DNA of 64,000 nt. Source: an uncultured bacterium (GTDB lineage: Bacteria; Acidobacteriota; Thermoanaerobaculia; Multivoradales; JAHZIX01). The notes below the pieces were generated by a model, which saw only the letters and a list, made by a program, of their open reading frames with translations, did no database searches and was not told the origin of the DNA. Location of the stretch: positions 457,824 through 521,823 of the forward strand of contig CBDUPA010000002.1 in assembly GCA_965368975.1 (NCBI GenBank), given 5' to 3'. Positions 8,499 through 58,799 of this stretch are shown here, piece by piece (the stretch's first letter is position 1; every line of letters begins with the position of its first letter). Both the position numbers and the translations under genes were made by a program.

Positions 8499-10873
<2,375 letters not shown>

Positions 10874-10907
10874 GGGTCCTCCCTAGGATATCGGGTGGGC
10901 TTGCGGG

Positions 10908-12635: not shown

Positions 12636-12659
12636 GGCAGCTTAGTCCCCATCTTGTCT

Positions 12660-13253: not shown

Positions 13254-13325
13254 GTTGCCTCGCTTCAGTGTTCGTTCAAGCCTGCGGCCGCCCCGGGTTG
13301 TCCCGGCGGCCTTGGGCCTGAGAAG

Positions 13326-13943: not shown

Positions 13944-14091
13944 CGTACGAAGATCCTCAGGCAGCTTTGCAGATAGAAGACAGGGGCGACGCTGGGCCGC
14001 GCCCGGGAGACCGGGCGCGAACCAACCACGTCATGGGCCCACCACGAATGGCCAGCCACGGTTCAGATTGCCGCGTGTACCGGGCTCGGGG

Positions 14092-15407
<1,316 letters not shown>

Positions 15408-29281: not shown

Positions 29282-29327
29282 GGGATGATCTCCTCTTCTG
29301 CCTCTAAGACAGTTCTGCCAGCAAGAT

Positions 29328-31189: not shown

Positions 31190-31211
31190 AGCAACTCCTC
31201 TGCATTGCGAT

Positions 31212-37846: not shown

Positions 37847-37856
37847 CCCCTCGGTC

Positions 37857-39266
37857 TCAAACCGCCTGCCTCACGATCTCACCACCGGGCAGCCGGCTGA
37901 ACAGGAACTCTTCGAGATCCTGGCGCACCGCGTCGACGCGGATGCGCTCCACCAGTTCGCTGGCGAAAGCGTAGGTCAGCAGGCTGCTCGCGGCTTCGGC
38001 ACTGATGCCGCGCGAGCGCAGGTAGAAGATGGCTTCCTCGTCCAGCTGGCCGACCGTCGAGCCGTGTGTGCAACGCACGTCGTCGGCGAAGATCTCTAGC
38101 TGCGGGTTCGAGTTGGCCAGGGCGTTCGGCGACAGTAGCAAGTTGCGGTTGGTCTGCTTGGCGTCGGTCTTCTGGGCGTCCTTGTGGACATGGATCAGAC
38201 CGTTGAACACCGCCCGGCCGTGACCGTCCAGAATGCCCTTGTACAGCTCGTGGCTGGTGCAGTGCGGCTTGGCGTGATCCACCTTCATGTGGTTGTCGAC
38301 GTGCTGGCGGCCGTCCACCAGGTACAAGCCGTTGAGCGTGCAGTCGCCCCCTTCACCGTCCAGATAGCCGTTGAGGTCGTTGCGCACCAGCTTGCCGCCC
38401 AGCGAGATGTTGTGCGAGCGGAAGACCGCGGCGCGGTCCGAATACGACTGCTGGGTGGCGACGTGGAAGGCGTGGCGCGGCTCGCGCTGCACCTTGTAGT
38501 GGTCGAGGAATGCATTGGGGCCGCAGACGGCCTCCGTCACCGGATTGGTGAACACGTGCTCGCTTTCCCCTGCCGGGCCTTCCATGCCGATGTAGGTCTC
38601 GACCACCGTCACCTGTGCCCCTTCATCGGCGACGAAGAGGTTGCGCGGGAAGCTGACGCTACCCGGCGTGACGGCGACGAAGATCACCTGGATCGGCACT
38701 TCCACCAGCACATTGCGGCGCGCATGCACGAAAGCACCGCCGGCACCGGCACTGGCCAGGAACGCCGTATTGAGCGCGGTGAAGGGACTGTCATCCACGT
38801 TGGCGTAGCGCCCCAGGTGAGCCTCGACGCCTTCGGCTCCTTGCTGGATCGCCTCGGCGAGAGGCAGCACCGTGACGCCCTCGGGCAGGTCGGCAGGCAC
38901 CAACAGCTCGGGACGGAAGTGCCCGTCGACGAACACCAGGTGGAGTCCACCGTCAAAGCGGTAGCGGTCGATCAGCTCGATCACCCCGGGTGCCACCTCC
39001 GGCAGCGCCCCTAGTACGGAAGCTGGCACCGGCTCAAAGCCACCGTTGGCGATCGGCTTGACGTTGGTGAAACGCCATTCTTCCTGGCGCAGCGTCGGGA
39101 AGCCTTGGCGGGCGAAGGCTTCTCGACCGTCCCGTCGCAACTGCGCGACGCGCGGCGAGGCGCCTGGCCCCGTCTCCTGCACTGCGGCGGCGAGGTCGAC
39201 CAAGGCTTGCACCTCGGGAGCGACCGTGGCCGTGTGAGTCTCTGGCTCAGCTACAGCTTGCATCAT
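37857..39266 (-). CDS. sufD: Fe-S cluster assembly protein SufD
   Basis: 469 aa with a beta-helix C-terminal region homologous to SufB (...TNRNLLLSPNALANSNPQLEIFADDVRCTHGSTVGQLDEEAIFYLRSRGI...). Confidence 0.85.
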   Translation of the reverse strand: MMQAVAEPETHTATVAPEVQALVDLAAAVQETGPGASPRVAQLRRDGREAFARQGFPTLRQEEWRFTNVKPIANGGFEPVPASVLGALPEVAPGVIELIDRYRFDGGLHLVFVDGHFRPELLVPADLPEGVTVLPLAEAIQQGAEGVEAHLGRYANVDDSPFTALNTAFLASAGAGGAFVHARRNVLVEVPIQVIFVAVTPGSVSFPRNLFVADEGAQVTVVETYIGMEGPAGESEHVFTNPVTEAVCGPNAFLDHYKVQREPRHAFHVATQQSYSDRAAVFRSHNISLGGKLVRNDLNGYLDGEGGDCTLNGLYLVDGRQHVDNHMKVDHAKPHCTSHELYKGILDGHGRAVFNGLIHVHKDAQKTDAKQTNRNLLLSPNALANSNPQLEIFADDVRCTHGSTVGQLDEEAIFYLRSRGISAEAASSLLTYAFASELVERIRVDAVRQDLEEFLFSRLPGGEIVRQAV

Positions 39267-39272
39267 CTCTCC

Positions 39273-40028
<756 letters not shown>

Positions 40029-40063
40029 GATCGTATGCTCTCTCCGTTCGTGTTTTTCTTTGA

Positions 40064-41509
<1,446 letters not shown>

Positions 41510-41631
41510 GGCGTCTCCTGTTCCTAACTTCCAACGGTGTCGAGCTGCCAGCGGTGTCGCCAGCTAGCCGGACTGTTTCTCTACTTTTCTTGCAGGCGGG
41601 CCGCTCGAGAGCGCGGCAGGGAGGAAGCCGC

Positions 41632-42108
41632 TCAGCTGAGCGCCGCACTCTCGAGACCGGCTTCGGTCCGCTCTCCGATGGTCACCAGGCGCGCCGACGA
41701 CGTCATGGGCTGCCCCATCTCCGCCAGCGTGATGCCTTCGAGCGCCTGACGAATCGCCTGGTTGATGCGATTCCAGTTGCTGCGCGACGGGCAGGTCGCG
41801 GCAAGACCGCACTCACCCGGCGTGTCGTCGATGCATTCGGTGATCCCGATCGGCCCTTCCAGGGCGCCGATGATCTCCGCCACCGTGATCTCGTCCGCCG
41901 GCCGGCTCAGGCTGTAACCACCCTTGACCCCACGCTGGGAGTCGAGAACCCCTTCGCGCGACAGCGCCTTGAGGATCTTGCTCACCATCGGCGCCGGCAA
42001 GTTCGCCTCCGTCGACAGGTCGGGCGCGGTGAACAACCGTTCCGGTTGATGCGCCAGGTGTGTCAGGAGGACGATGCCGTAGTCGGTTTGCTTGGTAATT
42101 CTCAGCAT
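41632..42108 (-). CDS. Rrf2-family transcriptional regulator (IscR/SufR-like), first gene of the suf operon
   Basis: MLRITKQTDYGIVLLTHLA... wHTH. Cys cluster CIDDTPGECGLAATCPSRSNW is suggestive of Fe-S ligation. Confidence 0.85.
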   Translation of the reverse strand: MLRITKQTDYGIVLLTHLAHQPERLFTAPDLSTEANLPAPMVSKILKALSREGVLDSQRGVKGGYSLSRPADEITVAEIIGALEGPIGITECIDDTPGECGLAATCPSRSNWNRINQAIRQALEGITLAEMGQPMTSSARLVTIGERTEAGLESAALS

Positions 42109-45591: not shown

Positions 45592-45630
45592 CCATGCAGG
45601 AATCATGACGTGCCTTGATTCCTGGCATGG
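45592..45630. promoter_or_regulatory. 14/15-bp inverted repeat in the divergent promoter region between the methyltransferase and the NRPS gene (candidate operator)
   Basis: ccatgcaggaatca-tgacgtgcc-t-tgattcctggcatgg; arms differ by a single inserted c. Confidence 0.4.
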
Positions 45631-45687
45631 GGCGGAGGACAATCGCGAGAGGAAGAGGCCCCTCAGGTCTCTCTGGAGGAGGAAATC

Positions 45688-48600
45688 ATGTCGACGTCGG
45701 ATCCGTCGCGTCCGAATGGCGCGCAGACGCCGCAGCCTACGCTCAGCGGGACGCAGCAGCTCTTGGCCGCACAGCTGACGGCCTTCAACCAGCTGGTGCA
45801 GAATCAACTGGCGGCGCTGCGTGGCGCTGGCGTGCGCAACCAGGCACCAGCAACGCAGGGCACGGCCGCGACGCAGGGGGCAGCCGCGACGCAGGGAGCA
45901 CCGCCACCAGCTCCCACCGAGCCATCAACGACGACGCAAGCAGAGGCAACCCCAGCCGGAGACAAGAAGCTCGCCTTCTTCACCCGCCGCGACGGCAAAC
46001 CCGGCCTGAAAGGTGCGACGGTGGGCGACGAGTCGCTGCGGCACGAGGTGCCGGACATCGTGCTCGAAGCGCGAGAGGAAGTGAAGTTCAGCTTCTACTT
46101 CTTCGGCAACTACCCGGCCGGCTTCCGCGACGACAAATACGACCTCCTTTTCCGGGCGGCGCGCTTCGCCGACACGCACGGCTTCGAAGGGCTGTGGTTC
46201 CCGGAGCGGCACTTCCATCCGTTCGGCGGCCTGTCACCCAACGCGTCGGTACTGGCGGCAGCGCTGGCGCGGGAGACGGAACGGGTGCGCCTGTGCTCCG
46301 GCAGCGTGGTGCTGCCCCTACACCATCCGGTGCGGGTAGCGGAGGAATGGTCCCTGGTGGACAACCTGTCCAAAGGGCGCGTGGGACTGTCCGTCGCGTC
46401 CGGCTGGCATCCCAACGACTTTGTGCTGGCACCGGAGAATTTCGGCAAGCACAAAGACCTGACGTTCGATCGTATCGACATCATTCGGCGCCTGTGGCGC
46501 GGCGAGCCGGTGACGTTCCCGGACGGCGCCGGCAACGACTTTCCGGTGCAGCTCTTCCCGCGACCGCTGCAGCAAGAGCCGACCATCTGGATGACGGTGG
46601 TCAACAACCCGGAAACCTACCGCCGCGCGGGCGAGGTCGGCGCCGGGGTCTTGACCAACCTGATGTCGCAGACGCCGGAGGCGCTGGCGGACAACCTCAA
46701 GATTCACCGGCAGGCGCTGCTCGACCACGGGCACGACCCGGAGAAGGCCCCGGTGACGGTGCTGCTGCACACGTTCCTCGGCAGCGACCAGCAAGCCGTG
46801 ATGGAGCATGCGCGCAAGCCGTTTCACGCCTACCTGGAATCGTCCGTGGGACTGTTCAAGAACATGGCGGCGGCACACGGGGTGTCGGTCGATTTCGACC
46901 GCCTGAGCGAAGAAGACAACGAGTACTTGATGGACCTGGCCTACCAGCGCTACGCGGCGACCAGCGCGCTGGTCGGCACGCCCGACACGTGCATGCCGAT
47001 CGTCGAACGATTGCGCCAGATGGGGGTACACGAGATTGCCTGCCTGGTGGACTTCGGTGTCGACGCACCGTCCGTGCAAGAGAGCCTGCCCTTCGTCGAC
47101 GAGCTACGACAGCGCTTCGAGGCCGAGGCAGTGCAACAGCGCGGACCGATGGACCTCCCCGCGCCGGCGGCACCGCCCTCGGCGATGTCTGCGACGACGC
47201 CCCAGCCGGGGCGCATCATGGACGCACGGGGAGCCCAGATAGAGGCAGACAGCTTCCCGCTCACCGGTTCGCAGCAGCAGCTCTACACCCTCGCCGCCTT
47301 CAGCCCGGCCGCCAGCGCCGCCTACAACGAGCACATGGTGCTGGAACTGAACGGTCCCCTGCAGCTGCCGGCGCTGGAAGCGGCGCTGGCACAGGTGGTG
47401 CTTCGGCACGAGGCGCTACGCACGGTGCTGGTGCCAACAGCGGGTGACGACAACGACCATCAGCGCGTGCTGCAGTCCGTGGATCTACGCCTCTCCCTGG
47501 TCGATGCAACGGGCCTGGGTGCCGCTGGCATCGAGATCGTATCCGAAGCGTGGCGCGCCGAGATCGGCGGTCGAGCGTTGGACCTGGAGCACGGGCCACT
47601 AGCCCGCATCGGCCTGCTGCGACTGGGCGGCGGACGTCACCTGCTGGCGCTGATCGTCCATCACACGATGGCCGATGGTCTATCGCTGGTGGTCGTGGGA
47701 CGTGAGCTGCTGGCCCTCTACGATGCCTTCGCTAGCGGCACCGAGCCACCGGTGCTGCCAGCACCGATGTCCATCCGCGACTATGCCGCCTGGATCGACG
47801 CGGCGCTGGCGCAGCGCGACATCGAAGCCTGCGACGCCTGGTGGCGCCAACACATGGCGGCTCCGCTGCCGACCTTCGACCCACCGACGGACCGGCCACG
47901 ACCGCCGGTGCGCAGCTTCGAAGGAGATCGCCGCTGGCTGCGTCTCGACGGCGACTTCCTACAAGCCGTGCGCGACTTGGGCGCCAAGCATGGCTGCACC
48001 CTGACCGTGACGCTGCTCGCCGCTTACGCCGAGGTGCTGCGGCGCTGGTGTGGCCAGGACGACGTCATCGTCGGCATTGCCGCCGCGCATCGACCCGGCG
48101 GAGCCCAAGGTGAAGCGCTGGTGGGGCACACCACGGACGTCCTGCCGCTGCGCTGGAACCGCGCCGGTGAAGCCGGCGACCTCGACTTCGCCAACCACCT
48201 GAAAGCCACCCGTCACCTGCTCTTCGACGCCCAGGAGCACGACTGCGGCTTTCCGCACCTGCTGCGCCTGCTCGACGTCAAGCCCGAGCCGGGCCGCGGT
48301 TCGCTGGTGAGCACCATCTTCAACATCGACCCCGAGCTGCCGCTGCCTCCGTCCGGCGGCCTGCAGACGCGCGTTGGCGAACCGGTGTTCCGCAAAATCA
48401 AGTTCGACCTGGCGCTACATGTCGTCCCTGGACTTGCTGTCCCCAGTCTGGCCGCCCCCGGAGTTGCCGGCCCCGGAGCTGGAGAGGCAGGGTCGACCAC
48501 CGGCAACCTGGCCTTCGGTCTCGACTACGTCACCGACCTGTTCGACGCCACCACCATGCAGCGCCTGCTCGGCCACCTGCACACTCTGCTCGACGCCGCC

Positions 48601-50535
48601 GTCGCCGACCCGGCACGACCGCTGACGTCGCTGCCCCTGTGCTCGACGGCGCAGCGGCAGCAAGCGCTCTACGAGTGGGGCGGCTACCGTCCTTTCGAGG
48701 TGGCTTTCGACCCCGAAGATCCAGAGCTGGGCGGCAACATTGCGCACCAGTTCCGACAGCAAGCGGCCCGCACCCCGGATGCCGTCGCGGTGGTGGCGGG
48801 ACATTGCCACCTCAGCTACCGGGAGCTCGACCGCCGCGCCCACAGCCTGGCCGCACAGTTGGTACAGCTGGGCATCCGCCCGGAGACGCCCGTGGCTCTG
48901 TGCACCGAGCGCAGCCTGGAGCGCATCGTCGCCCTGGTCGGCATCCTCGCCGTCGGCGGCGTCTACCTGCCGCTCGACCCCGCCGACCCCGCGCGACGCC
49001 TCGGCTACCTACTCGACGACACCGGCGTCCAGCTGGTCCTCGGCACCGGCGAGCAGCTCGACCGCCTGCCGCTGGACGAATTGGACGAACGCGACATCGA
49101 GATGCTGGAGCTGGAGGAGCTGGACGTGCACAACGAGGTGGAGAGCGCACCGCTTCCCGCCTGCCACCCCGACCAGCTCGCCTATATCGTCTACACCTCC
49201 GGCTCGACCGGCCAGCCCAAAGGCGTCCGCGTGCCGCACCGCGCCGTCCTACGCCTGGTACAGCGCACCGACTTCGCACGCATGGACGCGGACGAAACCT
49301 GGCTGCACGCCGCGCCACTCGCCTTCGACGCCTCGAAGCTCGAAATCTGGGGCGCCCTGCTGCACGGCAGCCGCCTGGTGCTGCTGCCGCCCGGCAAGCA
49401 AGACCTGGCGTCGATCGCGCGCGTGATCGAACGCGGTGGCATCTCCTCCGCCTGGTTGACGGCAGCGCTGTTCCAGCAGATGGTGGAACAGCAACTGCCA
49501 AGACTGGGGGGTCTGCGTCAATTGCTGGCGGGCGGCGATGTCCTCGCTCCGGACGCTGTGCGCCGGCTGCTCGAAGTCCACGACAGCCTGCGATTGATCG
49601 ACGGCTACGGCCCCACTGAAAACACCACCTTCACCACCTGCGGCCCGGTCGATCGCCCCGAAGACGTCGGCACCACGGTGAGCATCGGCCGCCCGATCGC
49701 GGGGACCCGGATCTTGGTGCTGGACGAGAACAGCCAGCCCGTGCCGCCGGGTGTGCCCGGGGAGTTGCTGGCGGCGGGAAGCGGCCTGGCACGCGACTAC
49801 CTAGCGCAACCGGCCCTGACCGCCGAGCGCTTCGTGCCGAATCCATTTCCAGGCGCCCCGGGAGAACGCGTCTACCGCACCGGCGACCGTGCCCGCTTCT
49901 TCGCCGACGGCCGCCTCGACTTCCTAGGCCGCATCGACCAGCAGGTCAAAGTGCGCGGCTTCCGCGTCGAACCGGGCGAGATCGAAGCGGTACTCGGCGA
50001 GCATCCGGAAGTGTCGCAGGCAGCGGTGGTGCTGCGTCGGGATGAGGAGGACCAGAGCCTCGTCGCCTTTGTGTCGCCACGTGAGTTGCTAGCCGGGGAT
50101 GGGGAAGTGTCGCCAGAACTGGCGCAAAGCCTGACGGCGACAATCCGGACCTACCTGGAACATCGCCTGCCGCCATACATGGTCCCGTCCGTCTTCGAAG
50201 TGCTGCCGCGCCTGCCGGTGAACGCCAACGGCAAACTGGACCGGAAGGCACTAGCGAGCCTGGCTGAAGGAGCGCAGACGGCATCGGCCGCGGTGAAGAT
50301 TGCGCCGCGGACACCGCTGGAGACGCGACTGACAGAGATGTGGTGCGAGGTGCTGAAGCGGGACGAGGTCGGGGTGACGGAGAACTTCTTTGACCTCGGC
50401 GGACATTCTTTGCTGGCGACGCGGTTGTTGTACCGCGTGCACCAGGCGTATGGCGTCGAGTTGCCGATGCTGGAGCTGTTCCAACATCCGACGATCGAGG
50501 AGTTGGCGGCGCGGGTGGAGGGTGTGCGGGGGTAG
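45688..50535 (+). CDS. Non-ribosomal peptide synthetase, single module: luciferase-like monooxygenase (LLM)-C-A-PCP (1615 aa)
   Basis: RBS GGAGGAGG. LLM domain (FSFYFFGNY...HGFEGLWFPERHFHPFGG...SVASGWHPNDF). C-domain HHTMADGLS. A-domain AYIVYTSGSTGQPKGV, FDASKLEIW, YGPTENTTFTT, YRTGDRARF, NGKLDRKAL. PCP FFDLGGHSLLATRLL. No TE or reductase domain. Confidence 0.9.
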   Translation: MSTSDPSRPNGAQTPQPTLSGTQQLLAAQLTAFNQLVQNQLAALRGAGVRNQAPATQGTAATQGAAATQGAPPPAPTEPSTTTQAEATPAGDKKLAFFTRRDGKPGLKGATVGDESLRHEVPDIVLEAREEVKFSFYFFGNYPAGFRDDKYDLLFRAARFADTHGFEGLWFPERHFHPFGGLSPNASVLAAALARETERVRLCSGSVVLPLHHPVRVAEEWSLVDNLSKGRVGLSVASGWHPNDFVLAPENFGKHKDLTFDRIDIIRRLWRGEPVTFPDGAGNDFPVQLFPRPLQQEPTIWMTVVNNPETYRRAGEVGAGVLTNLMSQTPEALADNLKIHRQALLDHGHDPEKAPVTVLLHTFLGSDQQAVMEHARKPFHAYLESSVGLFKNMAAAHGVSVDFDRLSEEDNEYLMDLAYQRYAATSALVGTPDTCMPIVERLRQMGVHEIACLVDFGVDAPSVQESLPFVDELRQRFEAEAVQQRGPMDLPAPAAPPSAMSATTPQPGRIMDARGAQIEADSFPLTGSQQQLYTLAAFSPAASAAYNEHMVLELNGPLQLPALEAALAQVVLRHEALRTVLVPTAGDDNDHQRVLQSVDLRLSLVDATGLGAAGIEIVSEAWRAEIGGRALDLEHGPLARIGLLRLGGGRHLLALIVHHTMADGLSLVVVGRELLALYDAFASGTEPPVLPAPMSIRDYAAWIDAALAQRDIEACDAWWRQHMAAPLPTFDPPTDRPRPPVRSFEGDRRWLRLDGDFLQAVRDLGAKHGCTLTVTLLAAYAEVLRRWCGQDDVIVGIAAAHRPGGAQGEALVGHTTDVLPLRWNRAGEAGDLDFANHLKATRHLLFDAQEHDCGFPHLLRLLDVKPEPGRGSLVSTIFNIDPELPLPPSGGLQTRVGEPVFRKIKFDLALHVVPGLAVPSLAAPGVAGPGAGEAGSTTGNLAFGLDYVTDLFDATTMQRLLGHLHTLLDAAVADPARPLTSLPLCSTAQRQQALYEWGGYRPFEVAFDPEDPELGGNIAHQFRQQAARTPDAVAVVAGHCHLSYRELDRRAHSLAAQLVQLGIRPETPVALCTERSLERIVALVGILAVGGVYLPLDPADPARRLGYLLDDTGVQLVLGTGEQLDRLPLDELDERDIEMLELEELDVHNEVESAPLPACHPDQLAYIVYTSGSTGQPKGVRVPHRAVLRLVQRTDFARMDADETWLHAAPLAFDASKLEIWGALLHGSRLVLLPPGKQDLASIARVIERGGISSAWLTAALFQQMVEQQLPRLGGLRQLLAGGDVLAPDAVRRLLEVHDSLRLIDGYGPTENTTFTTCGPVDRPEDVGTTVSIGRPIAGTRILVLDENSQPVPPGVPGELLAAGSGLARDYLAQPALTAERFVPNPFPGAPGERVYRTGDRARFFADGRLDFLGRIDQQVKVRGFRVEPGEIEAVLGEHPEVSQAAVVLRRDEEDQSLVAFVSPRELLAGDGEVSPELAQSLTATIRTYLEHRLPPYMVPSVFEVLPRLPVNANGKLDRKALASLAEGAQTASAAVKIAPRTPLETRLTEMWCEVLKRDEVGVTENFFDLGGHSLLATRLLYRVHQAYGVELPMLELFQHPTIEELAARVEGVRG
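45970..47100 (+). other. Luciferase-like monooxygenase domain (natural-product LLM type) fused N-terminally to the NRPS module
   Basis: TIM-barrel flavin monooxygenase-like motifs; ~375 aa. Confidence 0.7.
47155..48480 (+). other. NRPS condensation domain
   Basis: HHTMADGLS (nt ~47660). Confidence 0.8.
48565..50130 (+). other. NRPS adenylation domain
   Basis: A3 TSGSTGQPKG (nt ~49195), A4 FDAS, A5 YGPTE, A10 NGKLDRKAL. Confidence 0.85.
50290..50500 (+). other. PCP (thiolation) domain
   Basis: LTEMWCEVLKRDEVGVTENFFDLGGHSLLATRLLYRV. Confidence 0.85.
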
Positions 50536-50539
50536 TGAG

Positions 50540-53098
50540 TCATTCCTCTGGGCTCCACTTTTCAAGCACAGCCAAACGGACCTCGTGTCGTTCTGGAAGC
50601 TTGGCCACACAGCGAAGGAGCTCCTCAACAAAAGTAGTGAGCCGAGTCGTGTCGCCAAGAGCTTCCAGCGTTAGGGAAAGATTGTGTATCAAACGCAGGG
50701 AGTCTGGGTGCTCTCGACCAAGAACACGGCGGCTGATCTTGAGTGTCGCCAACTGATGATCACGTGCACCTACATAGTCACCAAGACAGCGAAGCGTTTC
50801 AGCAAGGTTGTTGCGCGAACTAAGGGTGGCCGGATGCTCTTCGCCCAAGACTCGACGACGGACCTCTAGAACAGCTGAATGCTCATCTCGAGCCTTTCCA
50901 TACTCCTCTAGTGACCGAAGTGTTTCGGCAAGGTTGTTGCGCGAATGTAAAGTGCTCGGGTGCTCGTCACCAAGGGTACGGCGACTAATTGCTAACGTTG
51001 CCGAGTGTTCACATCGAGCACCGGCGTAGTTGCCAAGAGAGCGAAGGGTCTCGGCAAGATTATTTCGCGAACGAAGCGTGTCTTGGTTCTCTTCGCCCAG
51101 GACACGACGACGCACTTCTAAAACTGCTGCATGCTCATCTTGAGCGGCCGCATAGTCACCAAGAGAACGAAGAGTCTCTGCAAGATTGCTGCGAGAATGG
51201 AGCGTGGACGGGTGTTCTTCACCCAAGAGACGGCCATAGACCTCAAGTGTTGCTGAGAGTTCATCTCGAGCACCGGTGTAGTCACCAAGCGCACGAAGAG
51301 TCGCGGCAAGATTGTTGCGCGAACGTAGTGTAGCTTGGTGCTCTTCACCTAAAACACTGCGGCAGACTTCTAGAGCCCTTACTTCGAGCTGCCTTGCCAC
51401 TTTGTAGTGCCCTATCGCAAAAACATAGAAACCCGTTTTCCGCAGAATTCGAGCCGGATTCACTTTGAAGACATCAAGGTCAACCTTCCTCCAGTGTTTG
51501 TCTGTTGCCTGGACCTGCGGTAACAACCGCTGGAACTGTGGCCAGCTGATCGGCTCATCAGGTCTTCCCGCTGGCATAGCGGCATCGAGTGCCCTGTGAG
51601 CACACTCCAGTGCCCCGTTCCATTCTCCAGCAGTTTCTAACTGCGCCAGCATCACCTCCTGCACTAGTCGGTGTAGCGAGAGCGTACGAGCTATTCGGTC
51701 CCAAGTCACCAAGGAATAGCGCTGTAACGGTGCCAACACCAACTCAGCAAAGGTCAATGGACACTGCAAATCTTCCTTGACTTCAGCAGCAGCAGGTCCG
51801 AGGTACTCGCCGCCTTGGCTGAAGATCTCTGCAGGGATGTCGAATGGCGCATAGAAAGCACAAGCCCTTAACACTTCGGCTGCAACCGGGGCAGTCTTCT
51901 CCAGCGGCTTGAAGCTGAGGTTCCATGTAGTCGCCACCGTCGCCGGATAGTCTCCAAACTGCGGCGCCTCCTTGTCCAGCAGCTTCAGACGTCGCTTCCG
52001 ATACGCAGCGAGGTAGTCAGCAAAGCTGACTTCGTGAATATCGACATAGGCACCTGCTTGCTCCAAAGCCAACGGTAAGTAACCGAGTTCCTCCGCCAAC
52101 TCCTCGGCAGCTGACCGAGCACCCGCATCCCTCCTAGCTCGCCGAAGAAGCAGATCCGTCGCCTGCTCCGACGGCAGTACACCCACTCCAAGCGGCTCCT
52201 GCCCAAAACCCTGGATCTTCCGATCACGCGACGTCACCAGCAGATGCCCCGAACTAGCAGCCGGCCTGAGAGGTCGAATCTCATCGGGCGCATCAACGTT
52301 GTCGAGCACCAACAGCCAGTCGCCTCGTTCCGACAACCAATGTTGAAACATCTCTGCAGCTTCGTCGACTGGTGTCTCTCGGGTGGTGATTTTGAGTCGC
52401 TGCGCCATCTGCGCATAGCTGGCTCGCAGCGCGTCAGCAGAAGAAGCATCCGCCCAGAAGACATACGGATAGTCAGCGCGATGGCGATAGCAAAACTCGA
52501 CCGCCGTCTGAGTCTTACCGATGCCACCGAGCCCTGTGATCGCCTGCGTCGAGGCCACACGCTTGGCCGCGGCAAGTCGCCGTTCCAGCTCCTCCAGTAA
52601 CTCCTCCCGCCCCGTGAAGAACGGATTGCGAGGCGGCACGTTCCAGAAAGTTCGCGGCTCCTCGTCTGGTCCGAAGAAGCGGGCTTTGACCAGCGGATAC
52701 TCACGAACTCTCTTGTCAAACGACGTGAGCCCCCAAACTTTCAGCTCGAACTCGCCCTGAATCACCTCGACCAGATGTTCTTCCGTCTCACGACTGACCG
52801 GACAGGTCGCCGCCAGCAAGTAGACATCCGGCGAGGGTGTCGGCGGCTTCCTGAGCACCTTCCTCACTTCGTCGGCAGCCTGCGCCTTGCCGAAGCGTTG
52901 CACACGCTTCGCCTGCGTCACCCATCGCCGCCCATCCGGCGCAGTGCTGACGACATCGCAGCCATCCTCACTACCTGCATCGCCCCAGTGGCGCACCTCC
53001 CTATGCCCCATGGCTTCAAGCAACCAGTGACACAGCTCCTCGAACTGCCTCGGAGACAGCTCGAAGTAGTTGAGATGGTGCTCGGTGTAGGCCATCAA
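50540..53098 (-). CDS. STAND NTPase: N-terminal Mrr-like PD-(D/E)xK nuclease, NB-ARC, C-terminal TPR array; candidate anti-phage defence (Avs / bacterial NLR-like) protein; lower-GC gene
   Basis: N-terminus FEELCHWLLEAMGHREV...GSEDGCDVV...RWVTQAKRV (D...QxK restriction-endonuclease-like core). NB-ARC Walker A ITGLGGIGKTQTAVEF, Walker B LLVLDNVD, LLVTSRD, GLPLA-like LGYLPLALEQAGAYV. Then ~7 TPR_12-like repeats (LGEEHPSTLHSRNNLAETLRSLGDYAGAR). GC ~52-59% versus ~68% background. Confidence 0.75.
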   Translation of the reverse strand: MMAYTEHHLNYFELSPRQFEELCHWLLEAMGHREVRHWGDAGSEDGCDVVSTAPDGRRWVTQAKRVQRFGKAQAADEVRKVLRKPPTPSPDVYLLAATCPVSRETEEHLVEVIQGEFELKVWGLTSFDKRVREYPLVKARFFGPDEEPRTFWNVPPRNPFFTGREELLEELERRLAAAKRVASTQAITGLGGIGKTQTAVEFCYRHRADYPYVFWADASSADALRASYAQMAQRLKITTRETPVDEAAEMFQHWLSERGDWLLVLDNVDAPDEIRPLRPAASSGHLLVTSRDRKIQGFGQEPLGVGVLPSEQATDLLLRRARRDAGARSAAEELAEELGYLPLALEQAGAYVDIHEVSFADYLAAYRKRRLKLLDKEAPQFGDYPATVATTWNLSFKPLEKTAPVAAEVLRACAFYAPFDIPAEIFSQGGEYLGPAAAEVKEDLQCPLTFAELVLAPLQRYSLVTWDRIARTLSLHRLVQEVMLAQLETAGEWNGALECAHRALDAAMPAGRPDEPISWPQFQRLLPQVQATDKHWRKVDLDVFKVNPARILRKTGFYVFAIGHYKVARQLEVRALEVCRSVLGEEHQATLRSRNNLAATLRALGDYTGARDELSATLEVYGRLLGEEHPSTLHSRSNLAETLRSLGDYAAAQDEHAAVLEVRRRVLGEENQDTLRSRNNLAETLRSLGNYAGARCEHSATLAISRRTLGDEHPSTLHSRNNLAETLRSLEEYGKARDEHSAVLEVRRRVLGEEHPATLSSRNNLAETLRCLGDYVGARDHQLATLKISRRVLGREHPDSLRLIHNLSLTLEALGDTTRLTTFVEELLRCVAKLPERHEVRLAVLEKWSPEE
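50580..51420 (-). repeat. Tandem ~126-bp nucleotide repeats (about 7 copies) encoding TPR repeats
   Basis: Recurrent caagattgttgcgcgaacg.../aaggttgttgcgcgaa... blocks every ~126 nt; mirrored at protein level by RSRNNLAETLRSLGDY... repeats. Confidence 0.8.
51840..52590 (-). other. NB-ARC NTPase domain
   Basis: GxxGxGKT Walker A, hhhhD Walker B, TTR-like and GLPL-like motifs. Confidence 0.75.
52650..53098 (-). other. Mrr-like restriction endonuclease (PD-(D/E)xK) effector domain of the STAND protein
   Basis: Motif order D (GSEDGCDVV) then QxK (VTQAKR), as in Mrr_cat. Confidence 0.5.
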
Positions 53099-53138: not shown

Positions 53139-54212
53139 CTAAGCAGCCTGCCGCGACGTCAAGATCTCCTCGAAGAACCGCTCCACGCCCGCCAAGAACA
53201 CCTCCGGCGTATCCATCACCTGCAACTGACGCCGCAGCTTCAACCCATCCGGAAGCCCGAAGCTGTACCAGCGCGCAAAACTCCGCAGCTTGTGCATGGC
53301 ATCGGTTCGCTCGCGCGTCTCGGCAACGGTGCGGAAGTGATCCAAGATCAACTCCCTGCGATCTTCCAGCGTCGGCTCGCGTAACTGCTTGCCCTCCAGC
53401 CGCGCGGCGATCTGACGGAACAGCCACGGATTCTTGGTCGCACCGCGCCCAACCATGACGCCATCACAGCCGGTCTTCCTGAACATCTCGATGGCATCTT
53501 CCGGCTCTTCGACGTCACCATTGCCGATCACCGGAATCGACAGCGCTTCCTTCAAGCGCGCGATGTGGGTCCAGTCAGCCTCGCCTTTGTACATCTGCTT
53601 GGCGGTGCGGGCGTGCATGGCGACGGCGTCGACGCCTTCAGCGTCGCAGATGCGGCCCAGTTCCAGGTAGTTCCGGCGGTTCACGTCCAGACCGAGACGG
53701 AACTTGACCGTCAACGGGACGCTCACCTGCCGCCGGACATTGACGATGATCGCCTCGGCTAGCTTCAGATCTCCCATCAACGCGGCCCCGGCGCAGCCTT
53801 TGAGCACCTTGTTGGCGGGACAACCCATGTTGATGTCGCACAGGTCGGGGCGCAGGTCCTCGACGATGCGGGCGGCGTCGGCCATGGTGTCGGCGTCGGA
53901 GCCGTAGATCTGGATGGCCAGGGGGCGTTCTTCCTCCTGGAACTGCATCAGGCGGCGCGTGAACTTGCGGCCGCTGGTGATATCGCGAGAGGAGAGGAAT
54001 TCCATCGACACCACACCGACACCGCCGATGCGGCGCACGATGAGGCGAAAGTCGCAATCGGTGATGCCGGCCATGGGGGCCAGCCACAGGGGTGGATCGA
54101 CGGTGACGCGGTGTTCTCCCGTGCCCAGGTGTACGGGGTCGGCGGCGACAGGAGCAGCGGTGTGTTGGCGCGGAGTTTCAGGCATGGTGCAGGTCTGGGT
54201 TGTGCCGGTCAT
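53139..54212 (-). CDS. dus: tRNA-dihydrouridine synthase (DusB-like)
   Basis: LAPMAGITDCDFR, ...DINMGCPANKV..., KFRLG, catalytic Cys; start likely internal to the track ORF (an N-terminal ~30 aa extension). Confidence 0.85.
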   Translation of the reverse strand: MTGTTQTCTMPETPRQHTAAPVAADPVHLGTGEHRVTVDPPLWLAPMAGITDCDFRLIVRRIGGVGVVSMEFLSSRDITSGRKFTRRLMQFQEEERPLAIQIYGSDADTMADAARIVEDLRPDLCDINMGCPANKVLKGCAGAALMGDLKLAEAIIVNVRRQVSVPLTVKFRLGLDVNRRNYLELGRICDAEGVDAVAMHARTAKQMYKGEADWTHIARLKEALSIPVIGNGDVEEPEDAIEMFRKTGCDGVMVGRGATKNPWLFRQIAARLEGKQLREPTLEDRRELILDHFRTVAETRERTDAMHKLRSFARWYSFGLPDGLKLRRQLQVMDTPEVFLAGVERFFEEILTSRQAA

Positions 54213-54271
54213 GGCAGTTCTGCAGGAAAGGCGAATTGTAACGCAGGCACCAGGGCGGTAGGATCGGACGC

Positions 54272-55009
54272 GTGGCCTGGTACAAGGAATGGTTCGACGA
54301 GCAGTATCTCGACCTCTACGCCCACCGCGACGAACGCGAGGCGGAGCGGCAGGTCGATTTCGTCGAGTCCCAGCTCAGTGATGGTCCGCGACCGCGGATG
54401 ATTCTGGACCTGGCCTGCGGGGCCGGGCGCCACTCGGACATCCTGAGCAAGCGTGGCTACCGGGTGGTGGGTGTCGACCTCTCGCTGACCCTACTCGCCG
54501 TCCACCCGGGACCGCGCCGGATCTGCGGCGACATGTGCAGCCTGCCCTTCCACTGCGACAGCTTCGACTGGCTACTCAACTTCTTCACCTCCTTCGGCTA
54601 CTTCGAGCGCGAGCGCCAGAACTTCCAGGTGCTGGAGGAGATCACTCGCGTGCTGCGCCCTGGCGGTCGCTTCCTGCTCGACTTTCTCAACCGCGACGTG
54701 GTGATCAACAACCTGCGGCCCACGGACGTCCAGGAGGACGACAAGCGACGGGTGGAGATCGAGCGCTGGTACGACCCAGCGTCACAGCGCATCAACAAAC
54801 GCATTCGCGTACAACCTCGCGGGGCTGCTCCCCGTACCTACCTCGAGAGCGTGCGCGCCTACTCCCAGGAAGAAGTCACCATCGGGATGCGCTGGGCGGG
54901 ACTGGAAGTCGACACGCTCTTCGGTAGCTTCGACGGAGACTCCTTTCATCGTGACAGCGAACGCCTCATCATCCTCGGGCACAAGCCCATCCTCGGCAGT
55001 GGCCGCTGA
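54272..55009 (+). CDS. Class I SAM-dependent methyltransferase
   Basis: ILDLACGAGRHS (motif I), YRVVGVDLS, LRPGGRFLLD; immediately upstream of, and overlapping, bshC. Confidence 0.75.
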   Translation: MAWYKEWFDEQYLDLYAHRDEREAERQVDFVESQLSDGPRPRMILDLACGAGRHSDILSKRGYRVVGVDLSLTLLAVHPGPRRICGDMCSLPFHCDSFDWLLNFFTSFGYFERERQNFQVLEEITRVLRPGGRFLLDFLNRDVVINNLRPTDVQEDDKRRVEIERWYDPASQRINKRIRVQPRGAAPRTYLESVRAYSQEEVTIGMRWAGLEVDTLFGSFDGDSFHRDSERLIILGHKPILGSGR

Positions 55010-56801
55010 CGCCGCTGCGCGGGATCCTGACGAGTACGGCCTCGGTCCGCTCGTCGCCACGGATCTACCGCGACTCGACTTGCTGGCGGGCGAACGCCTG
55101 GCACCGCTCTCTGCGGCGCTGGTGCGGGGTGAGCAGCGCGAGTTGCTGGCGCCGCTACGCCACCTGACACCGGGCACGCTGCCGGCAGCCATTGCGCCGG
55201 CTGGCAATGAGCCCGCACCGCTCGACCGTTCCGCGCTGGCGGAGGGCCTGGCCATCGCCAATCGTAGCTATGGCCACCCCAAGGCCACGGAACTGGCCGC
55301 CAAGCTGGCGGATCCGGCAACGCGCGTGGTGGTGACGGGGCAGCAGCCGGGGTTGTTCGGCGGTCCGCTGTACACGCTGTCCAAGGCGCTGGCGGCGGCG
55401 CGGTGGGCTGAAGCACTAGAGGCGGCGGCCCTGGAAGAAAGGGCAATAGAGGCGGCGGCCCCGGAAGCTCGGAATGGGGACACCCCCGGACAGCCTGCGG
55501 TGGCGGTCTTCTGGGTAGCCACCGAGGATCACGACTTCCGCGAGGTGGCGACGACGACCGTACTGGGTCCAGACGGGCCGTTGACGTTGACGCTCGGCGA
55601 CGATTCACAGCCGCTGTTGCCGGTCGGCATGCGCAGCCTGGGACCGGGGGTGGAAGAGATCCTGGCGACGCTGCGGGAGCAGCTACCCGGCGACCGCTAC
55701 AGCGACTGGCTGGACGAGGTCGGCCGCTGGTATCGACCGGACGCGCGCTTCGGCGAGTCGTTCTGCCGTCTGCTGGTGCGCTTGCTGGGTGACCGCTGCC
55801 CGCTGATCCTCGACGCGATGTTGCCGGCGGTGAAGGTGGCGCAGCAGCCGTGGTTGCGGCAGCTGGTGGAGCAGCGGCATACGGTGGCCCGCAAGATCGC
55901 CGAGCACGAAGCGAACGTCGAGGCCGCGGGCTTCCCACTGCAGGTGGCGGCCCAGGGCCCCGCGACAGACCCGGAGCCGGAAAGCTCGATTGTCAGTCCG
56001 CTGTTTCTCTTGCACCAGGGGGAGCGTCGACGTATCGAGTGGCAGGGGGAGGACCGGTTCAGCCTGCGCGGCAGCGACGAGCCGGCGCGGCCGGTGGCCG
56101 AACTGTTGCAGCTGCTGGACGACAATCCTCTCCTGGTGAGTCCCGGCGTGCTGGCACGGCCAGCCGTGCAGGACGCGATTCTCGGCACCACGCTGATGGT
56201 GCTGGGCCCGGCCGAGCTCGCCTACATGACGCAGGCTTCCGCGTGCCACAAAATACTCGGCCTCGATGCACAGAACCGGCCCGCCCCCTGGGTGACACTG
56301 CGGCCACAGATCGCGGTGCTCGAACCGCGGCATCTGAATTGGCTCGAGGAGCTGGGGCTGCGCCTGCCGCAGCTGCTGGGCGATCGCGAGACTCTGAACG
56401 CCGAGCTGGCGCGGCGGCACGGCGCCGACTTCGTGGCGCCGATGCAGAAACGCATCCTGGCCCTGCTCGAAGAGCTGCGCGATGCCGCCATCGCGGTTGA
56501 TCCGAATCTGCTCAGCTCGTGGAAGAAGACGCGCGGGCAGGTGGAGAAGGCGCTGGGCATGTTCCAGGGCCGCATCCACCAGGCGGCCGCACGCGCCGAC
56601 GAGACGCGCAACCAGCGACTGGACAACCTGCGGGACACCTTGTTGCCCGCCGGCAAGGGACAGGAGCGGTTGATCTCCTGCATCCACTTCCCGGGCAAGT
56701 ACGGTGACGACTTCGTCGAGGCCTGCTGGCTGCAGCTGGATCTCGACCCGCGGCAGCTGCAGGTGGTGCAGTCCGTACCGCCGCGGGGGAAGCAGCCATG
56801 A
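54951..56801 (+). CDS. bshC: Bacillithiol biosynthesis cysteine-adding enzyme BshC
   Basis: 616 aa with the BshC family core VVVTGQQPGLFGGPLYTLSKALAAARWAE and overall length and topology of YllA/BshC. The start overlaps the upstream methyltransferase gene by 59 nt; exact start uncertain. Confidence 0.7.
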   Translation: MTANASSSSGTSPSSAVAADAAARDPDEYGLGPLVATDLPRLDLLAGERLAPLSAALVRGEQRELLAPLRHLTPGTLPAAIAPAGNEPAPLDRSALAEGLAIANRSYGHPKATELAAKLADPATRVVVTGQQPGLFGGPLYTLSKALAAARWAEALEAAALEERAIEAAAPEARNGDTPGQPAVAVFWVATEDHDFREVATTTVLGPDGPLTLTLGDDSQPLLPVGMRSLGPGVEEILATLREQLPGDRYSDWLDEVGRWYRPDARFGESFCRLLVRLLGDRCPLILDAMLPAVKVAQQPWLRQLVEQRHTVARKIAEHEANVEAAGFPLQVAAQGPATDPEPESSIVSPLFLLHQGERRRIEWQGEDRFSLRGSDEPARPVAELLQLLDDNPLLVSPGVLARPAVQDAILGTTLMVLGPAELAYMTQASACHKILGLDAQNRPAPWVTLRPQIAVLEPRHLNWLEELGLRLPQLLGDRETLNAELARRHGADFVAPMQKRILALLEELRDAAIAVDPNLLSSWKKTRGQVEKALGMFQGRIHQAAARADETRNQRLDNLRDTLLPAGKGQERLISCIHFPGKYGDDFVEACWLQLDLDPRQLQVVQSVPPRGKQP

Positions 56802-57562
56802 GCGAGTCGCGGCAGCCTCAGAAGCTCGACGTACTGGCGATCGGCGCGCATCCGGACGATGTCGAGCTCGGCTGCGGCGGCACGCTCGCCGTGCTGGCAC
56901 AGCAGGGCAAGAAGGTCGGCATCGTGCACCTGACGCGCGGTGAGCGCGGCACGCGCGGCACACCGGAGGAGCGCGAGCAGGAAGCAGGACGCGCGGCGGA
57001 AGCGCTGGGGGCGGAGGTGCTCGAACTCCTCGACTGCGGCGATGGCAGCCTGCGCACCGGTGAGGCGGAGGAAGACGCGCTGATCGAGGTGCTGCGACGC
57101 TACCGGCCGGAGGTCGTGCTCGGTCCGACGCCGCGTGATCGCCATCCGGATCATGGTCGCGCCCACCAGCTGGTGGAAGCCGCGGCCTTCTATGCCGGGC
57201 TGCGTCGACGCGGGGACGATGGGCTGGAGCCGCACCGGCCGGCGGCGGTGTTCAGCTACATGCAGCACGACCCGTTCGACGTGCGCTTCGTGGTCGACGT
57301 GACCGCCGGCTGGCAGCGCAAGTTGCGCTCGCTGGCTGCCTACGACAGTCAGTTGCACGCCACGGCCTTCGGCTCCGAGGACGGCAAGACCACCGACGAA
57401 CCCATGACCAAGGTCGCCACCCCGGAATTCGCCCTCGCCGTCGAGGGACGCGCGCGGCACTTCGGCCAGATGATCGGCGCCACCTTCGGCGAGCCGTTCA
57501 CCTGCCGTCTACCTCTGGCGGTCAGCGATGTACTGACCCTAGCACCCGGAGGGGTGCGATGA
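56798..57562 (+). CDS. bshB: Bacillithiol biosynthesis deacetylase BshB1 (LmbE/PIG-L family)
   Basis: LAIGAHPDDVELGCGGTLA (PIG-L zinc motif), HPDH; ATGA start/stop overlap with bshC. Confidence 0.8.
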   Translation: MSESRQPQKLDVLAIGAHPDDVELGCGGTLAVLAQQGKKVGIVHLTRGERGTRGTPEEREQEAGRAAEALGAEVLELLDCGDGSLRTGEAEEDALIEVLRRYRPEVVLGPTPRDRHPDHGRAHQLVEAAAFYAGLRRRGDDGLEPHRPAAVFSYMQHDPFDVRFVVDVTAGWQRKLRSLAAYDSQLHATAFGSEDGKTTDEPMTKVATPEFALAVEGRARHFGQMIGATFGEPFTCRLPLAVSDVLTLAPGGVR

Positions 57563-57657
57563 GCAATACCGCCCTAGCACCCGGAGGGGTGCGATGAGCA
57601 ATACCGCCCTGGCACCCGGAGGGGTGCGCTAATTGGACCGTGCACCCCTCCGGGTGC
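57542..57657. repeat. 35-bp tandem repeat (2.5 copies) duplicating the bshB 3-prime end and stop codon, ending in a perfect 16-bp inverted repeat
   Basis: gcacccggaggggtgcgatgagcaataccgcccta x2, then gcacccggaggggtgc-gctaattggaccgt-gcacccctccgggtgc. Creates two 12-codon mini-ORFs (MSNTALAPGGVR). Confidence 0.85.
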
Positions 57658-57677
57658 AACGAGAATATGGAGCGCCC

Positions 57678-58799
57678 ATGAAAATCGGTATCAGTTGTTA
57701 TCCGAGCTACGGCGGCTCCGGCGTGGTCGCCTCGGAGCTGGCCATGGCCCTCGCGGCCGGCGGCGACGAAGTGCACGTGATCAGCTATGCGTTGCCGTCG
57801 CGGTTGTTCCTCAACGACCCTCGGCTGCACTACCACGAGGTCGTGGTGCCGCACTATCCGCTGTTCGAGTATCCGCCCTACTCGCTAGCGCTCGCGACCA
57901 AGATGGTCGAGGTAGCACGGCACCAAGAGCTGGACCTCATGCACGTGCACTACGCGGTGCCCAACGCCGTCTCGGCCGTGCTAGCGCGGCAGATGTTGGA
58001 GCCGACACGCCACCTGCCGGTGGTGACGACCTTGCACGGCACCGATATCACGCTGGTCGGCAACGACCCCAACTACCTCGAGACAACTCGCTTCGGCATC
58101 CTGCAGAGCAACGGCGTCACCACTGTGTCGCAGGCGCTCAAGGACGGCACCTGTGAGCACCTGGGCATCAGCCGCGACATCGACGTAATTCCCAATTTCA
58201 TCGATCCGCAACGCTTCAGCAAGGTCAAGGCCGAGGGCTTCGGCGCACGCCGCTGGGCAGAGGGTGGCGACCGCCTGCTGGTGCACATCTCGAACTTCCG
58301 GCCGGTCAAGCGTACCGAGGACGTGGTCGAGATTTTCGCCCGCATCCGGCGCGAGGTGCCCTGCCGGCTCTTGATGGTGGGCGATGGTCCCGAGCGGGCG
58401 CGCGTCGAGAAGCTGTGCCGCGACCATAAGATCTGCCACGCCATCACCTTCATGGGCAACCTGCCACTGATCGAGGAAGTGCTGATCGGGGCGGACCTCT
58501 TCCTGCTGCCTTCGGAAAACGAGAGCTTCGGCCTGGCAGCGCTGGAGGCTCTGGCCTGCGGTGTGCCCGTGATCGCCAGTGATGTCGGTGGCTTGCCGGA
58601 AGTGGTGACCGAAGGCGAGAACGGCTTCCTGCGGCCGGTGGGTGATGTCGACGCGATGGCGGAGGCCGGCATTTCCCTGCTCCAGGACGCCGACCGGCAC
58701 GCGCGCTTCTGCAGGGCGGCGCGCACCCTGGCGGTAGAGCGCTTCGACCAGGACAAGGTGGTCGACCAGTACCGCGAGGCATACCGTAAGGTGCTGTGA
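57678..58799 (+). CDS. bshA: Bacillithiol biosynthesis glycosyltransferase BshA (GT4; N-acetylglucosaminyl-malate synthase)
   Basis: MKIGISCYPSYGGSGVVASELAMALAAGGDEVHVIS..., C-terminal GT4 EX7E region (SENESFGLAALEALACGVPVIASDVGGLPEVV). Start ATG 57678 with GGAG upstream. Confidence 0.8.
   Translation: MKIGISCYPSYGGSGVVASELAMALAAGGDEVHVISYALPSRLFLNDPRLHYHEVVVPHYPLFEYPPYSLALATKMVEVARHQELDLMHVHYAVPNAVSAVLARQMLEPTRHLPVVTTLHGTDITLVGNDPNYLETTRFGILQSNGVTTVSQALKDGTCEHLGISRDIDVIPNFIDPQRFSKVKAEGFGARRWAEGGDRLLVHISNFRPVKRTEDVVEIFARIRREVPCRLLMVGDGPERARVEKLCRDHKICHAITFMGNLPLIEEVLIGADLFLLPSENESFGLAALEALACGVPVIASDVGGLPEVVTEGENGFLRPVGDVDAMAEAGISLLQDADRHARFCRAARTLAVERFDQDKVVDQYREAYRKVL

Follow-up and report, generated by a model that had tools for sequence, protein, structure and literature searches.

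The stretch of DNA analyzed here (64,000 nucleotides; hereafter the window), from contig CBDUPA010000002.1 of an uncultured bacterium of the Thermoanaerobaculia (Acidobacteriota), contains a gene for a single nonribosomal peptide synthetase (NRPS) module. The encoded protein is composed, in order, of a luciferase-like monooxygenase (LLM), a condensation (C), an adenylation (A) and a peptidyl carrier protein (PCP) domain, preceded by a low-complexity leader. Pfam matches place Bac_luciferase at residues 150-448 (E 8e-54), Condensation at 521-914, AMP-binding at 1022-1372, AMP-binding_C at 1431-1516 and PP-binding at 1547-1610. The TAG stop codon (50533-50535) lies 5 residues past the PCP domain and no domain follows it. 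A chain release function, whether a thioesterase (TE), a reductase or a terminal C domain, was found neither in the gene nor in the 64-kb window, except for the TE of a separate NRPS locus (633-7988). These data agree with the initial annotation, made from the sequence alone, which had described an LLM-C-A-PCP module without a release domain lying ~37 kb from the other NRPS locus; Pfam and TIGR04020 matches support the architecture, and the two loci, separated by atp and suf genes, are physically unlinked at a distance of 37.7 kb. As had likewise been recorded, the next gene is a convergent STAND NTPase gene of lower G + C content, which is separated from the stop codon of the NRPS gene by only 4 bp (50536-50539). 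The features of the window are collected in Table 1.

Table 1 Features of the NRPS module locus and of its surroundings in the window.
Feature	Position	Strand	Remarks
Focal NRPS open reading frame	45688-50535	+	ATG start; 1615 aa; LLM-C-A-PCP order
N-terminal leader, 133 aa	45688-46086	+	Q/A/T/P-rich, low complexity
FMN-dependent luciferase-like monooxygenase (Ox), PuwE type	46087-47109	+	Residues 134-474; TIGR04020, 6KET
Condensation domain	47248-48567	+	PF00668, E 5e-71; HHTMADG
Adenylation domain	48751-50235	+	PF00501, E 5e-87; PF13193; TIGR01733, 421 bits (cutoff 317)
PCP domain	50326-50517	+	PF00550, E 3e-19; GGHS, Ser1574
Shine-Dalgarno-like GGAGGAGG	45675-45682	+	5 nt before ATG 45688; read from sequence
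9-bp perfect inverted repeat CAGGAATCA-N10-TGATTCCTG	45597-45624		Imperfect extension to ~45592-45630
Divergent class I S-adenosylmethionine (SAM) methyltransferase, 439 aa	44214-45533	-	Pfam
STAND NTPase gene, not part of the module	50540-53098	-	Mrr_cat 13-81, NB-ARC 165-352, TPR_12/TPR_10 549-816
Left-locus NRPS	633-7988	+	TubC_N-C-A(KR insert)-PCP-TE; KR residues 1763-1940; last gene of its locus
atp genes	8499-15407		Between the two NRPS loci
MacB-type ATP-binding cassette (ABC) system	28100-32465	-	Two FtsX permeases, ATPase, HlyD-family adaptor
FadD11-like fatty acid-CoA ligase	33283-35079	-	400 bits, family cutoff 950
suf operon with regulator	36512-42108		Between the two NRPS loci

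The LLM domain gives an indication of the type of pathway to which the module belongs. It matches TIGR04020, the MupA/Atu3671 family of flavin mononucleotide (FMN)-dependent luciferase-like monooxygenases, over the entire model (positions 1-341 of 341), scoring 488.1 bits (cutoff 244.45). Among solved structures, the best match is PuwE (PDB 6KET; E 1.9e-138), with 56% identity over 341 residues aligned without gaps. The domain is thus homologous to the monooxygenase (Ox) domain of PuwE and, according to the Pfam order, directly precedes the C domain. PuwE is the hybrid enzyme of puwainaphycin synthesis, in which an aminotransferase (AmT) and the Ox domain have been assigned to the formation of a 3-amino-2-hydroxy-acyl unit (PMC4219810). 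The AmT and Ox pair has also been described for floridanemamide and tychonamide (PMC13252402), and ralsolamycin RmyA carries an AmT and LLM pair before its NRPS modules (PMC4989320). The role of Ox in these systems, hydroxylation of the C-alpha of a carrier-bound beta-amino acyl chain, was assigned by pathway logic (PMC4219810, PMC13252402). By analogy, we infer that the focal Ox domain acts on an upstream acyl chain and not on the aminoacyl unit of its own module. If Ox tailors the upstream chain together with an aminotransferase, then the missing parts would be chiefly upstream, namely a fatty acyl-AMP ligase (FAAL), an acyl carrier protein (ACP), a polyketide synthase (PKS) and an AmT.

The three domains that follow are those of an NRPS elongation unit. 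The active-site motif of the C domain, HHTMADG, is intact (residues 658-664). Its closest solved relatives are the C domains of Txo1 and Txo2 and residues 558-863 of PvdL, which we take to be the acyl-accepting first C domain of that protein. In the A domain, motifs A3, A4, A5, A7, A8 and A10 were found and the specificity-pocket residues Asp235 and Lys517 are in place. The Stachelhaus code, the extraction of which had been suggested from the outset, reads DALWLGGTFK; it was obtained by alignment to a GrsA fragment, for which the procedure reproduces DAWTIAAICK. DALWLGGTFK resembles the codes for valine and other branched-chain aliphatic residues. The A domain of PuwE is likewise predicted to take valine (PMC4219810). 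Finally, the PCP domain is complete, covering PF00550 profile positions 2-67 of 67, with GGHS at residues 1571-1574.

To what larger assembly such a module would belong is indicated by its homologs. The best colinear homologs number 26 and share 40-47% identity over 90-98% of the focal protein. All but six of them (P0001, P0053, P0067, P0076, P0085 and P0101) contain a match to the aminotransferase family PF00202, and in the homologs for which domains were mapped, P0021, P0014, P0022 and P0054, the AmT is located directly before the LLM (4/4). The most complete example is an open reading frame (ORF) in locus L082 (2498-14296), which encodes a 3933-residue megasynthase with the order FAAL-ACP-KS-AT-ACP-AmT-LLM-C-A-PCP (KS, ketosynthase; AT, acyltransferase). 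The focal gene aligns with the last third of this protein, beginning within the AmT-LLM linker. By alignment, the focal gene is the counterpart of the C-terminal third of lipo-initiation megasynthases, the products of which are 3-amino-2-hydroxy-fatty-acyl peptides of the puwainaphycin, microginin and ralsolamycin type.

The unusual feature of the locus is its upstream side, as the lipid-building enzymes are absent nearby. Searches of the window by tblastn, using multi-module homologs and the 3933-residue L082 megasynthase as queries, detected no KS, AT, AmT or FAAL, and there is no free-standing ACP, TE or reductase in the window outside the left locus. Outside the two NRPS loci the only tblastn matches were to a generic acyl-CoA ligase, and the one AMP-binding gene besides the NRPS genes is the FadD11-like ligase beyond the suf operon, with a score below its family cutoff. 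PF00202 is absent from the focal protein itself, and the adjacent upstream gene is the divergent methyltransferase gene and not an AmT gene. Three homologs that appear to begin with the LLM domain were examined as precedents for such an arrangement and rejected as artifacts: in P0053 and P0101 the gene is cut short where the contig ends, and P0076 is a miscalled fragment of the 3933-residue ORF. Two others, P0067 from Microcystis and the cyanobacterial P0001, start 96 and 47 bp inside their contigs, respectively, and sit within clusters in which docking-domain NRPS genes come next; LLM-first starts of this kind may well exist inside working clusters.

The homologs also bear on the other end of the protein. 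Fifteen of the 26 colinear homologs terminate 3-46 residues past the focal end, nine of these within 10 residues (3-10). Among their C-termini are ...ARRVEILAGQASR and ...ARRVERGAAPAGAS, against ...AARVEGVRG in the focal protein. Downstream of the terminal PCP in L082 is a convergent, unrelated gene and in L086 the following gene is also unrelated. Moreover, tblastn with the multi-module homologs, among them some that run on into a second C domain or a TE, revealed no remnants of C, A, PCP, TE or other NRPS sequence either beneath the STAND gene or past it. It is very probable that the gene was not truncated by the STAND gene, that it ends at a natural boundary and that it encodes a PuwE-type module. 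In L086 (1430-16405), the locus of P0054 on a 968-kb contig, the cluster consists of split C-A and A-PCP genes, a FAAL-ACP, a KS gene and the AmT-LLM-C-A-PCP gene. The last domain of this cluster is likewise a PCP, neither a TE nor another module occurs within 10 kb, and a linked release domain may commonly be missing in the AmT-LLM-C-A-PCP family.

The STAND gene itself shows the tripartite layout of antiviral (Avs-like) STAND NTPases, with an N-terminal effector, an NTPase and a C-terminal repeat sensor. Its true start is likely ATG 53095, one codon inside the listed TTG. The gene differs in composition from its surroundings, having a G + C content of 0.55-0.60 versus 0.66-0.70 and a third-position G + C content (GC3) of 0.58 overall versus 0.82-0.90 in neighboring genes. 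GC3 declines along the gene, from 0.73 for Mrr to 0.63 for NB-ARC and 0.46 for the TPR region. On these grounds the composition suggests a foreign origin or a swapped sensor region. PADLOC returned weak matches (E 1e-7 or worse) to the nuclease domain only, and a curated defense model was not matched. The top NCBIfam hit, the FxSxx-COOH-system TPR protein, scored 515 bits (cutoff 300) and involved the NB-ARC/TPR region. Around the gene we found no tRNA genes, no mobile-element genes and no flanking direct repeats longer than 7 bp, nor were there terminator-like or promoter-like sites or a match to an Rfam family. The STAND gene probably arrived later, in a spacer flanked by two convergent genes.

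At the 5´ end, a strong ribosome-binding site, GGAGGAGG, is positioned 5 nt before the ATG at 45688 and supports it as the translation start. The 154-bp intergenic region that divides the NRPS gene from the divergent methyltransferase gene contains the inverted repeat CAGGAATCA-N10-TGATTCCTG. This repeat occurs once in the window and 0 of 100 shuffles contain any; its RNA fold has an energy of -24.9 kcal/mol (z = -3.3). The repeat may be an operator or a leader hairpin. Within the coding region, an 18-bp tandem repeat of 2.4 copies (45853-45896) encodes ATQG(T/A)A units in the leader. Leader residues 75-133 can be aligned to the linker that joins AmT and Ox in the fused homologs, and a scan of 1.84 billion representative proteins returned zero homologs of the 133-residue leader. 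We also considered whether the leader is the decayed end of an AmT, as a BLAST high-scoring segment pair with P0021 had placed leader residues 28-46 on the last AmT helix. This candidate was ruled out, there being no significant similarity in three tests; phmmer of the N-terminus against all homologs gave no significant match to AmT C-termini, and an AmT profile scored the leader at 2.9 bits, below many of 500 shuffles.

As judged from its sequence, the gene looks functional. Its 1615 codons are uninterrupted by a stop or a frameshift, and its GC3 of 0.83 is like that of housekeeping genes. The protein keeps 93% of the near-invariant columns, within the range of the homologs (0.86-1.0). It carries 8 private changes at otherwise invariant sites versus 5-7 in equally isolated homologs and 14 in P0085, a comparison that does not discriminate.

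The surroundings of the gene were compared with those of relatives, as synteny had been named as a means of judging the locus. Beyond the STAND gene (53139-59491) lie genes for Dus, a methyltransferase, BshC, a PIG-L deacetylase (BshB-like), a GT4 glycosyltransferase (BshA-like) and UPF0029, such that bacillithiol-synthesis genes are clustered in this block. The best Dus matches come from Thermoanaerobaculia (65-70% identity), and the block is collinear across this class (L001, L003, L004, L007, L011, L036 and L043), but only up to the Dus stop codon. Among Dus-anchored loci of 43 Acidobacteriota genomes there is no homolog of the NRPS, the STAND protein or the 439-residue methyltransferase. 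In the relatives, the Dus 3´ flank carries varied inserts, including a Ser/Thr kinase-TPR protein, a Yip1-domain protein and a Na/H exchanger (L036 11003-16280, L041 1711-5100 and L043 10980-16600), and it appears to be a recurrent variable spot. After the inserts, the relatives resume with a conserved block consisting of a small ORF, an MtnA-like IF-2B-family gene and a Cys/Met pyridoxal phosphate (PLP) enzyme gene. The MtnA-like and Cys/Met PLP enzyme block is not present in the window. Because collinearity stops at Dus and the downstream conserved block is missing, the focal NRPS gene lies at a synteny breakpoint. On the other side, homologs of the divergent methyltransferase are widespread at 50-58% identity, in neighborhoods that differ and that have no adjacent LLM-NRPS gene; in the window, genes for a secreted protein and a DUF429 protein are found beside it. 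The methyltransferase (P0121) and the left-locus NRPS (P0242) are present at 100% identity in the public protein collection, on a contig of 588,756 nt, whereas the focal NRPS is absent from this collection above 47% identity. The focal gene may be uncalled in the source annotation, perhaps having been flagged as partial or as a pseudogene.

The left NRPS locus continues past the window edge (window 1-7988, forward strand). Its last gene is preceded by the end of a carrier-protein gene (~301-630; PCP at 301-567, by tblastn) that finishes in an acidic docking tail, ...DIEEGSL. A ketoreductase (KR) inserted in an A domain, as found here, is the usual arrangement in modules that activate alpha-keto acids and form depsipeptides. 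Ahead of the PCP in the carrier-protein gene, the sequence FDVVVFDTDGRVLVEIEGYTLRR is similar to the end of a PKS dehydratase; the left locus may thus be a PKS/NRPS hybrid. Between the loci, the MacB-type exporter and the FadD11-like ligase are of types that often adjoin lipopeptide clusters, and here the suf operon stands between them and the focal gene. The ORF for the ATP synthase beta subunit (8499-10613, reverse strand) is listed with 704 residues, with its domains starting from residue 233 and its 5´ part overlapping the gamma gene (9995-10873, reverse strand); its true start is probably internal, which would make the extension an artifact of ORF listing and not a sign of an unusual protein.

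Taken together, we consider it probable that the focal gene encodes an intact, natively composed PuwE-type Ox-C-A(Val-like)-PCP module that has been orphaned or split from its partners. By analogy with the characterized pathways, its most likely role is that of the module for the first amino acid in a 3-amino-2-hydroxy-acyl lipopeptide pathway, from the other parts of which it is now unlinked. In such a pathway, the A domain would load valine or a similar branched-chain residue on the PCP, the Ox domain would hydroxylate the C-alpha of the carrier-bound (beta-amino) acyl chain, and the C domain would move this chain onto the amino group of Val-S-PCP. Release of the resulting acyl-Val thioester would then require a downstream C domain or a hydrolase. 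As the upstream and downstream parts are absent locally, an active module must rely in trans on partners encoded elsewhere in the genome, both for the acyl-ACP donor and for release. That the module still works in this way, with unlinked partners, is close to an even proposition on the sequence features described above. The initial annotation had suggested that the module may deliver an oxidized aminoacyl unit in trans. Of this proposal, action in trans is plausible, but an Ox domain of the PuwE type would not oxidize the aminoacyl unit of its own module.

Several observations weigh against this reading. No partner for the focal module was found in the window, and there is no recognizable docking element, because the protein has no C-terminal tail and its leader matches nothing. 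No ortholog above about 47% identity exists among 5.8 billion proteins. Residues at family-invariant sites of the Ox domain are changed (P186A, R203C, L298P/P299T and Y340H), and the region taken as motif A6 deviates at two conserved glycines (G1363A and G1370D). The valine-like substrate of the A domain is predicted from a comparison of codes rather than from a predictor run. In addition, long chance ORFs are common in this GC-rich DNA.

In a rival reading, the gene would be a recently orphaned relic, that is, the surviving 3´ part of a FAAL/PKS/AmT-Ox-C-A-PCP cluster, the rest of which was lost in a rearrangement, leaving it translatable but without a product. We regard this as unlikely, though it deserves serious weight. 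The closest homologs have an AmT ahead of the LLM, joined in the L082 ORF by a PKS, and here there is none; the apparent stand-alone LLM-first homologs are mostly artifacts; and the locus lies at a synteny breakpoint where the conserved post-Dus block is missing. The altered invariant residues in the Ox domain and in the presumed motif A6 and the absence of docking elements point the same way, and long ORFs survive by chance at 65-70% G + C, as illustrated by a 610-residue ORF in another frame here. A relic would, however, have had to retain 1615 uninterrupted codons, a strong Shine-Dalgarno sequence, a native GC3 and an intact set of catalytic motifs. Its private substitutions are not above those of equally divergent homologs, and LLM-first genes are probably real in working clusters (P0067 and P0001). 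The suggestion in the initial annotation that the module is a fragment of a disrupted pathway is plausible. A different kind of loss had been suspected on the downstream side, with insertion of the STAND gene removing downstream modules or a TE from the same or the next gene. The foreign composition of the STAND gene (GC3 0.58 versus 0.83), its position 4 bp from the NRPS stop with no terminator, the variability of the Dus 3´ flank in relatives and a focal tail past the last PCP helix that is 3-10 residues shorter than those of the nearest PCP-terminal homologs would all be in keeping with such an event. Yet the PCP profile is full, 15 of the 26 homologs share the end point, no NRPS remnants are present and a conserved housekeeping block lies directly beyond the STAND gene, while direct repeats, tRNA genes and mobile-element genes are lacking. 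Truncation of the cluster by the STAND gene is thus not supported by these data and, in our estimate, very improbable. The gene itself is not truncated; the loss of a whole downstream gene is possible.

In a split-cluster reading, the module could feed, or draw from, the left PKS/NRPS line that ends at 633-7988. The TE of this line is the sole one in the window, the line appears to be a hybrid that includes carrier proteins, and both loci are native in composition. Split NRPS pathways are known, as with pvdL, which is located away from the other pyoverdine NRPS genes. A split cluster of this kind is nevertheless very unlikely here, since atp, transporter and suf genes fill the 37.7 kb between the loci, the left line seems to lack nothing at its 3´ end and the two loci share only ~28-31% identity in their C domains. 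A docking match, which the initial annotation had envisaged between the focal C-terminus and the N-terminus of another NRPS, was not found either: the focal protein has no C-terminal tail, and the sole N-terminal dock in the window (TubC_N, at 633) is already paired with the ...DIEEGSL tail of the adjacent upstream gene. Alternatively, the protein could be an autonomous mini-synthetase in which an acyl-CoA or acyl-ACP from primary metabolism is hydroxylated by Ox and the product, an N-(2-hydroxy)acyl-valine, is freed by hydrolysis or by an unlinked thioesterase. The proximity of its C domain to PvdL 558-863 among solved structures, the FadD11-like ligase and MacB/HlyD-type exporter 10-17 kb upstream and the absence of a TE also from the L086 cluster would fit this scheme. 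We judge it highly improbable, however, because a carrier-bound donor precedes the module in every homolog examined, no release enzyme is nearby, the ligase and exporter lie beyond the suf operon and are common housekeeping types, and the cited literature offers no precedent. More broadly, a stand-alone working Ox-C-A-PCP enzyme with no covalently or genetically linked partner could be either a portable lipo-initiation adaptor, taking acyl chains from an unlinked or primary-metabolism carrier, or an autonomous maker of N-(2-hydroxyacyl)-valine-type products, freed by hydrolysis, and its lineage-specific leader would be a new kind of docking or regulatory element. Such an enzyme is quite unlikely.

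For annotation, the locus advises caution, in that a PCP-ending NRPS gene beside a foreign gene should not be called truncated until the ends of its homologs have been checked. For the Ox-C-A-PCP family, the informative comparison is that of the upstream side. If active, the module would offer a small, tractable example of lipo-initiation in trans in the Acidobacteriota, a phylum that is gene-rich and has few characterized products, and would provide a compact Ox-C-A-PCP unit for the engineering of 2-hydroxy-acyl peptides. If a relic, it would document the breakup of biosynthetic lines at synteny breakpoints. Neither outcome alters the current understanding of NRPS biology, and the locus serves as a lead for genome-wide partner searching.

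Among known systems, PuwE from Cylindrospermum alatosporum (PKS module-AmT-Ox-C-A(Val)-PCP) shares with the focal protein the Ox-C-A-PCP order and the 56% identity of the Ox domains. Unlike PuwE, which is cyanobacterial, the focal gene comes from an uncultured member of the Thermoanaerobaculia (Acidobacteriota), and it has neither the KS-AT-ACP and AmT parts nor a cluster with a FAAL, an ACP, further NRPS modules or a TE. The best matches, at 42-47% across LLM-C-A-PCP, are acidobacterial and metagenomic megasynthases (L082; P0054, P0063 and P0072, from Pyrinomonadaceae-like metagenome-assembled genomes). These likewise end a few residues past the PCP, but their acyl-activating, PKS and AmT parts, of which the focal gene has none, are encoded together with LLM-C-A-PCP in one gene or cluster, and their A-domain codes are mostly DAFFLGVTFK, in contrast to the focal DALWLGGTFK. 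In the microginin-type P0067 of Microcystis aeruginosa, LLM-C-A-PCP is a separate ORF that is colinear with the focal protein at 41% identity and for which an LLM-first start is possible. P0067 has a 21-residue C-terminal docking tail and is followed by a gene that begins with TubC_N, whereas the focal protein has neither. RmyA (FAAL-KS-AmT-LLM-NRPS), which is one giant protein followed by the TE-bearing RmyB, is also unlike the focal gene. MycA of mycosubtilin and iturin synthesis (FAAL-ACP-KS-AmT-C-A-PCP) is not known to have an Ox domain. In this enzyme, a beta-amino fatty acyl chain is joined to the first amino acid by C-A-PCP (PMC4219810, PMC4989320). MycA has all of the upstream domains and the focal module shares with it the C-A-PCP logic by which an acyl chain is linked to the first amino acid.

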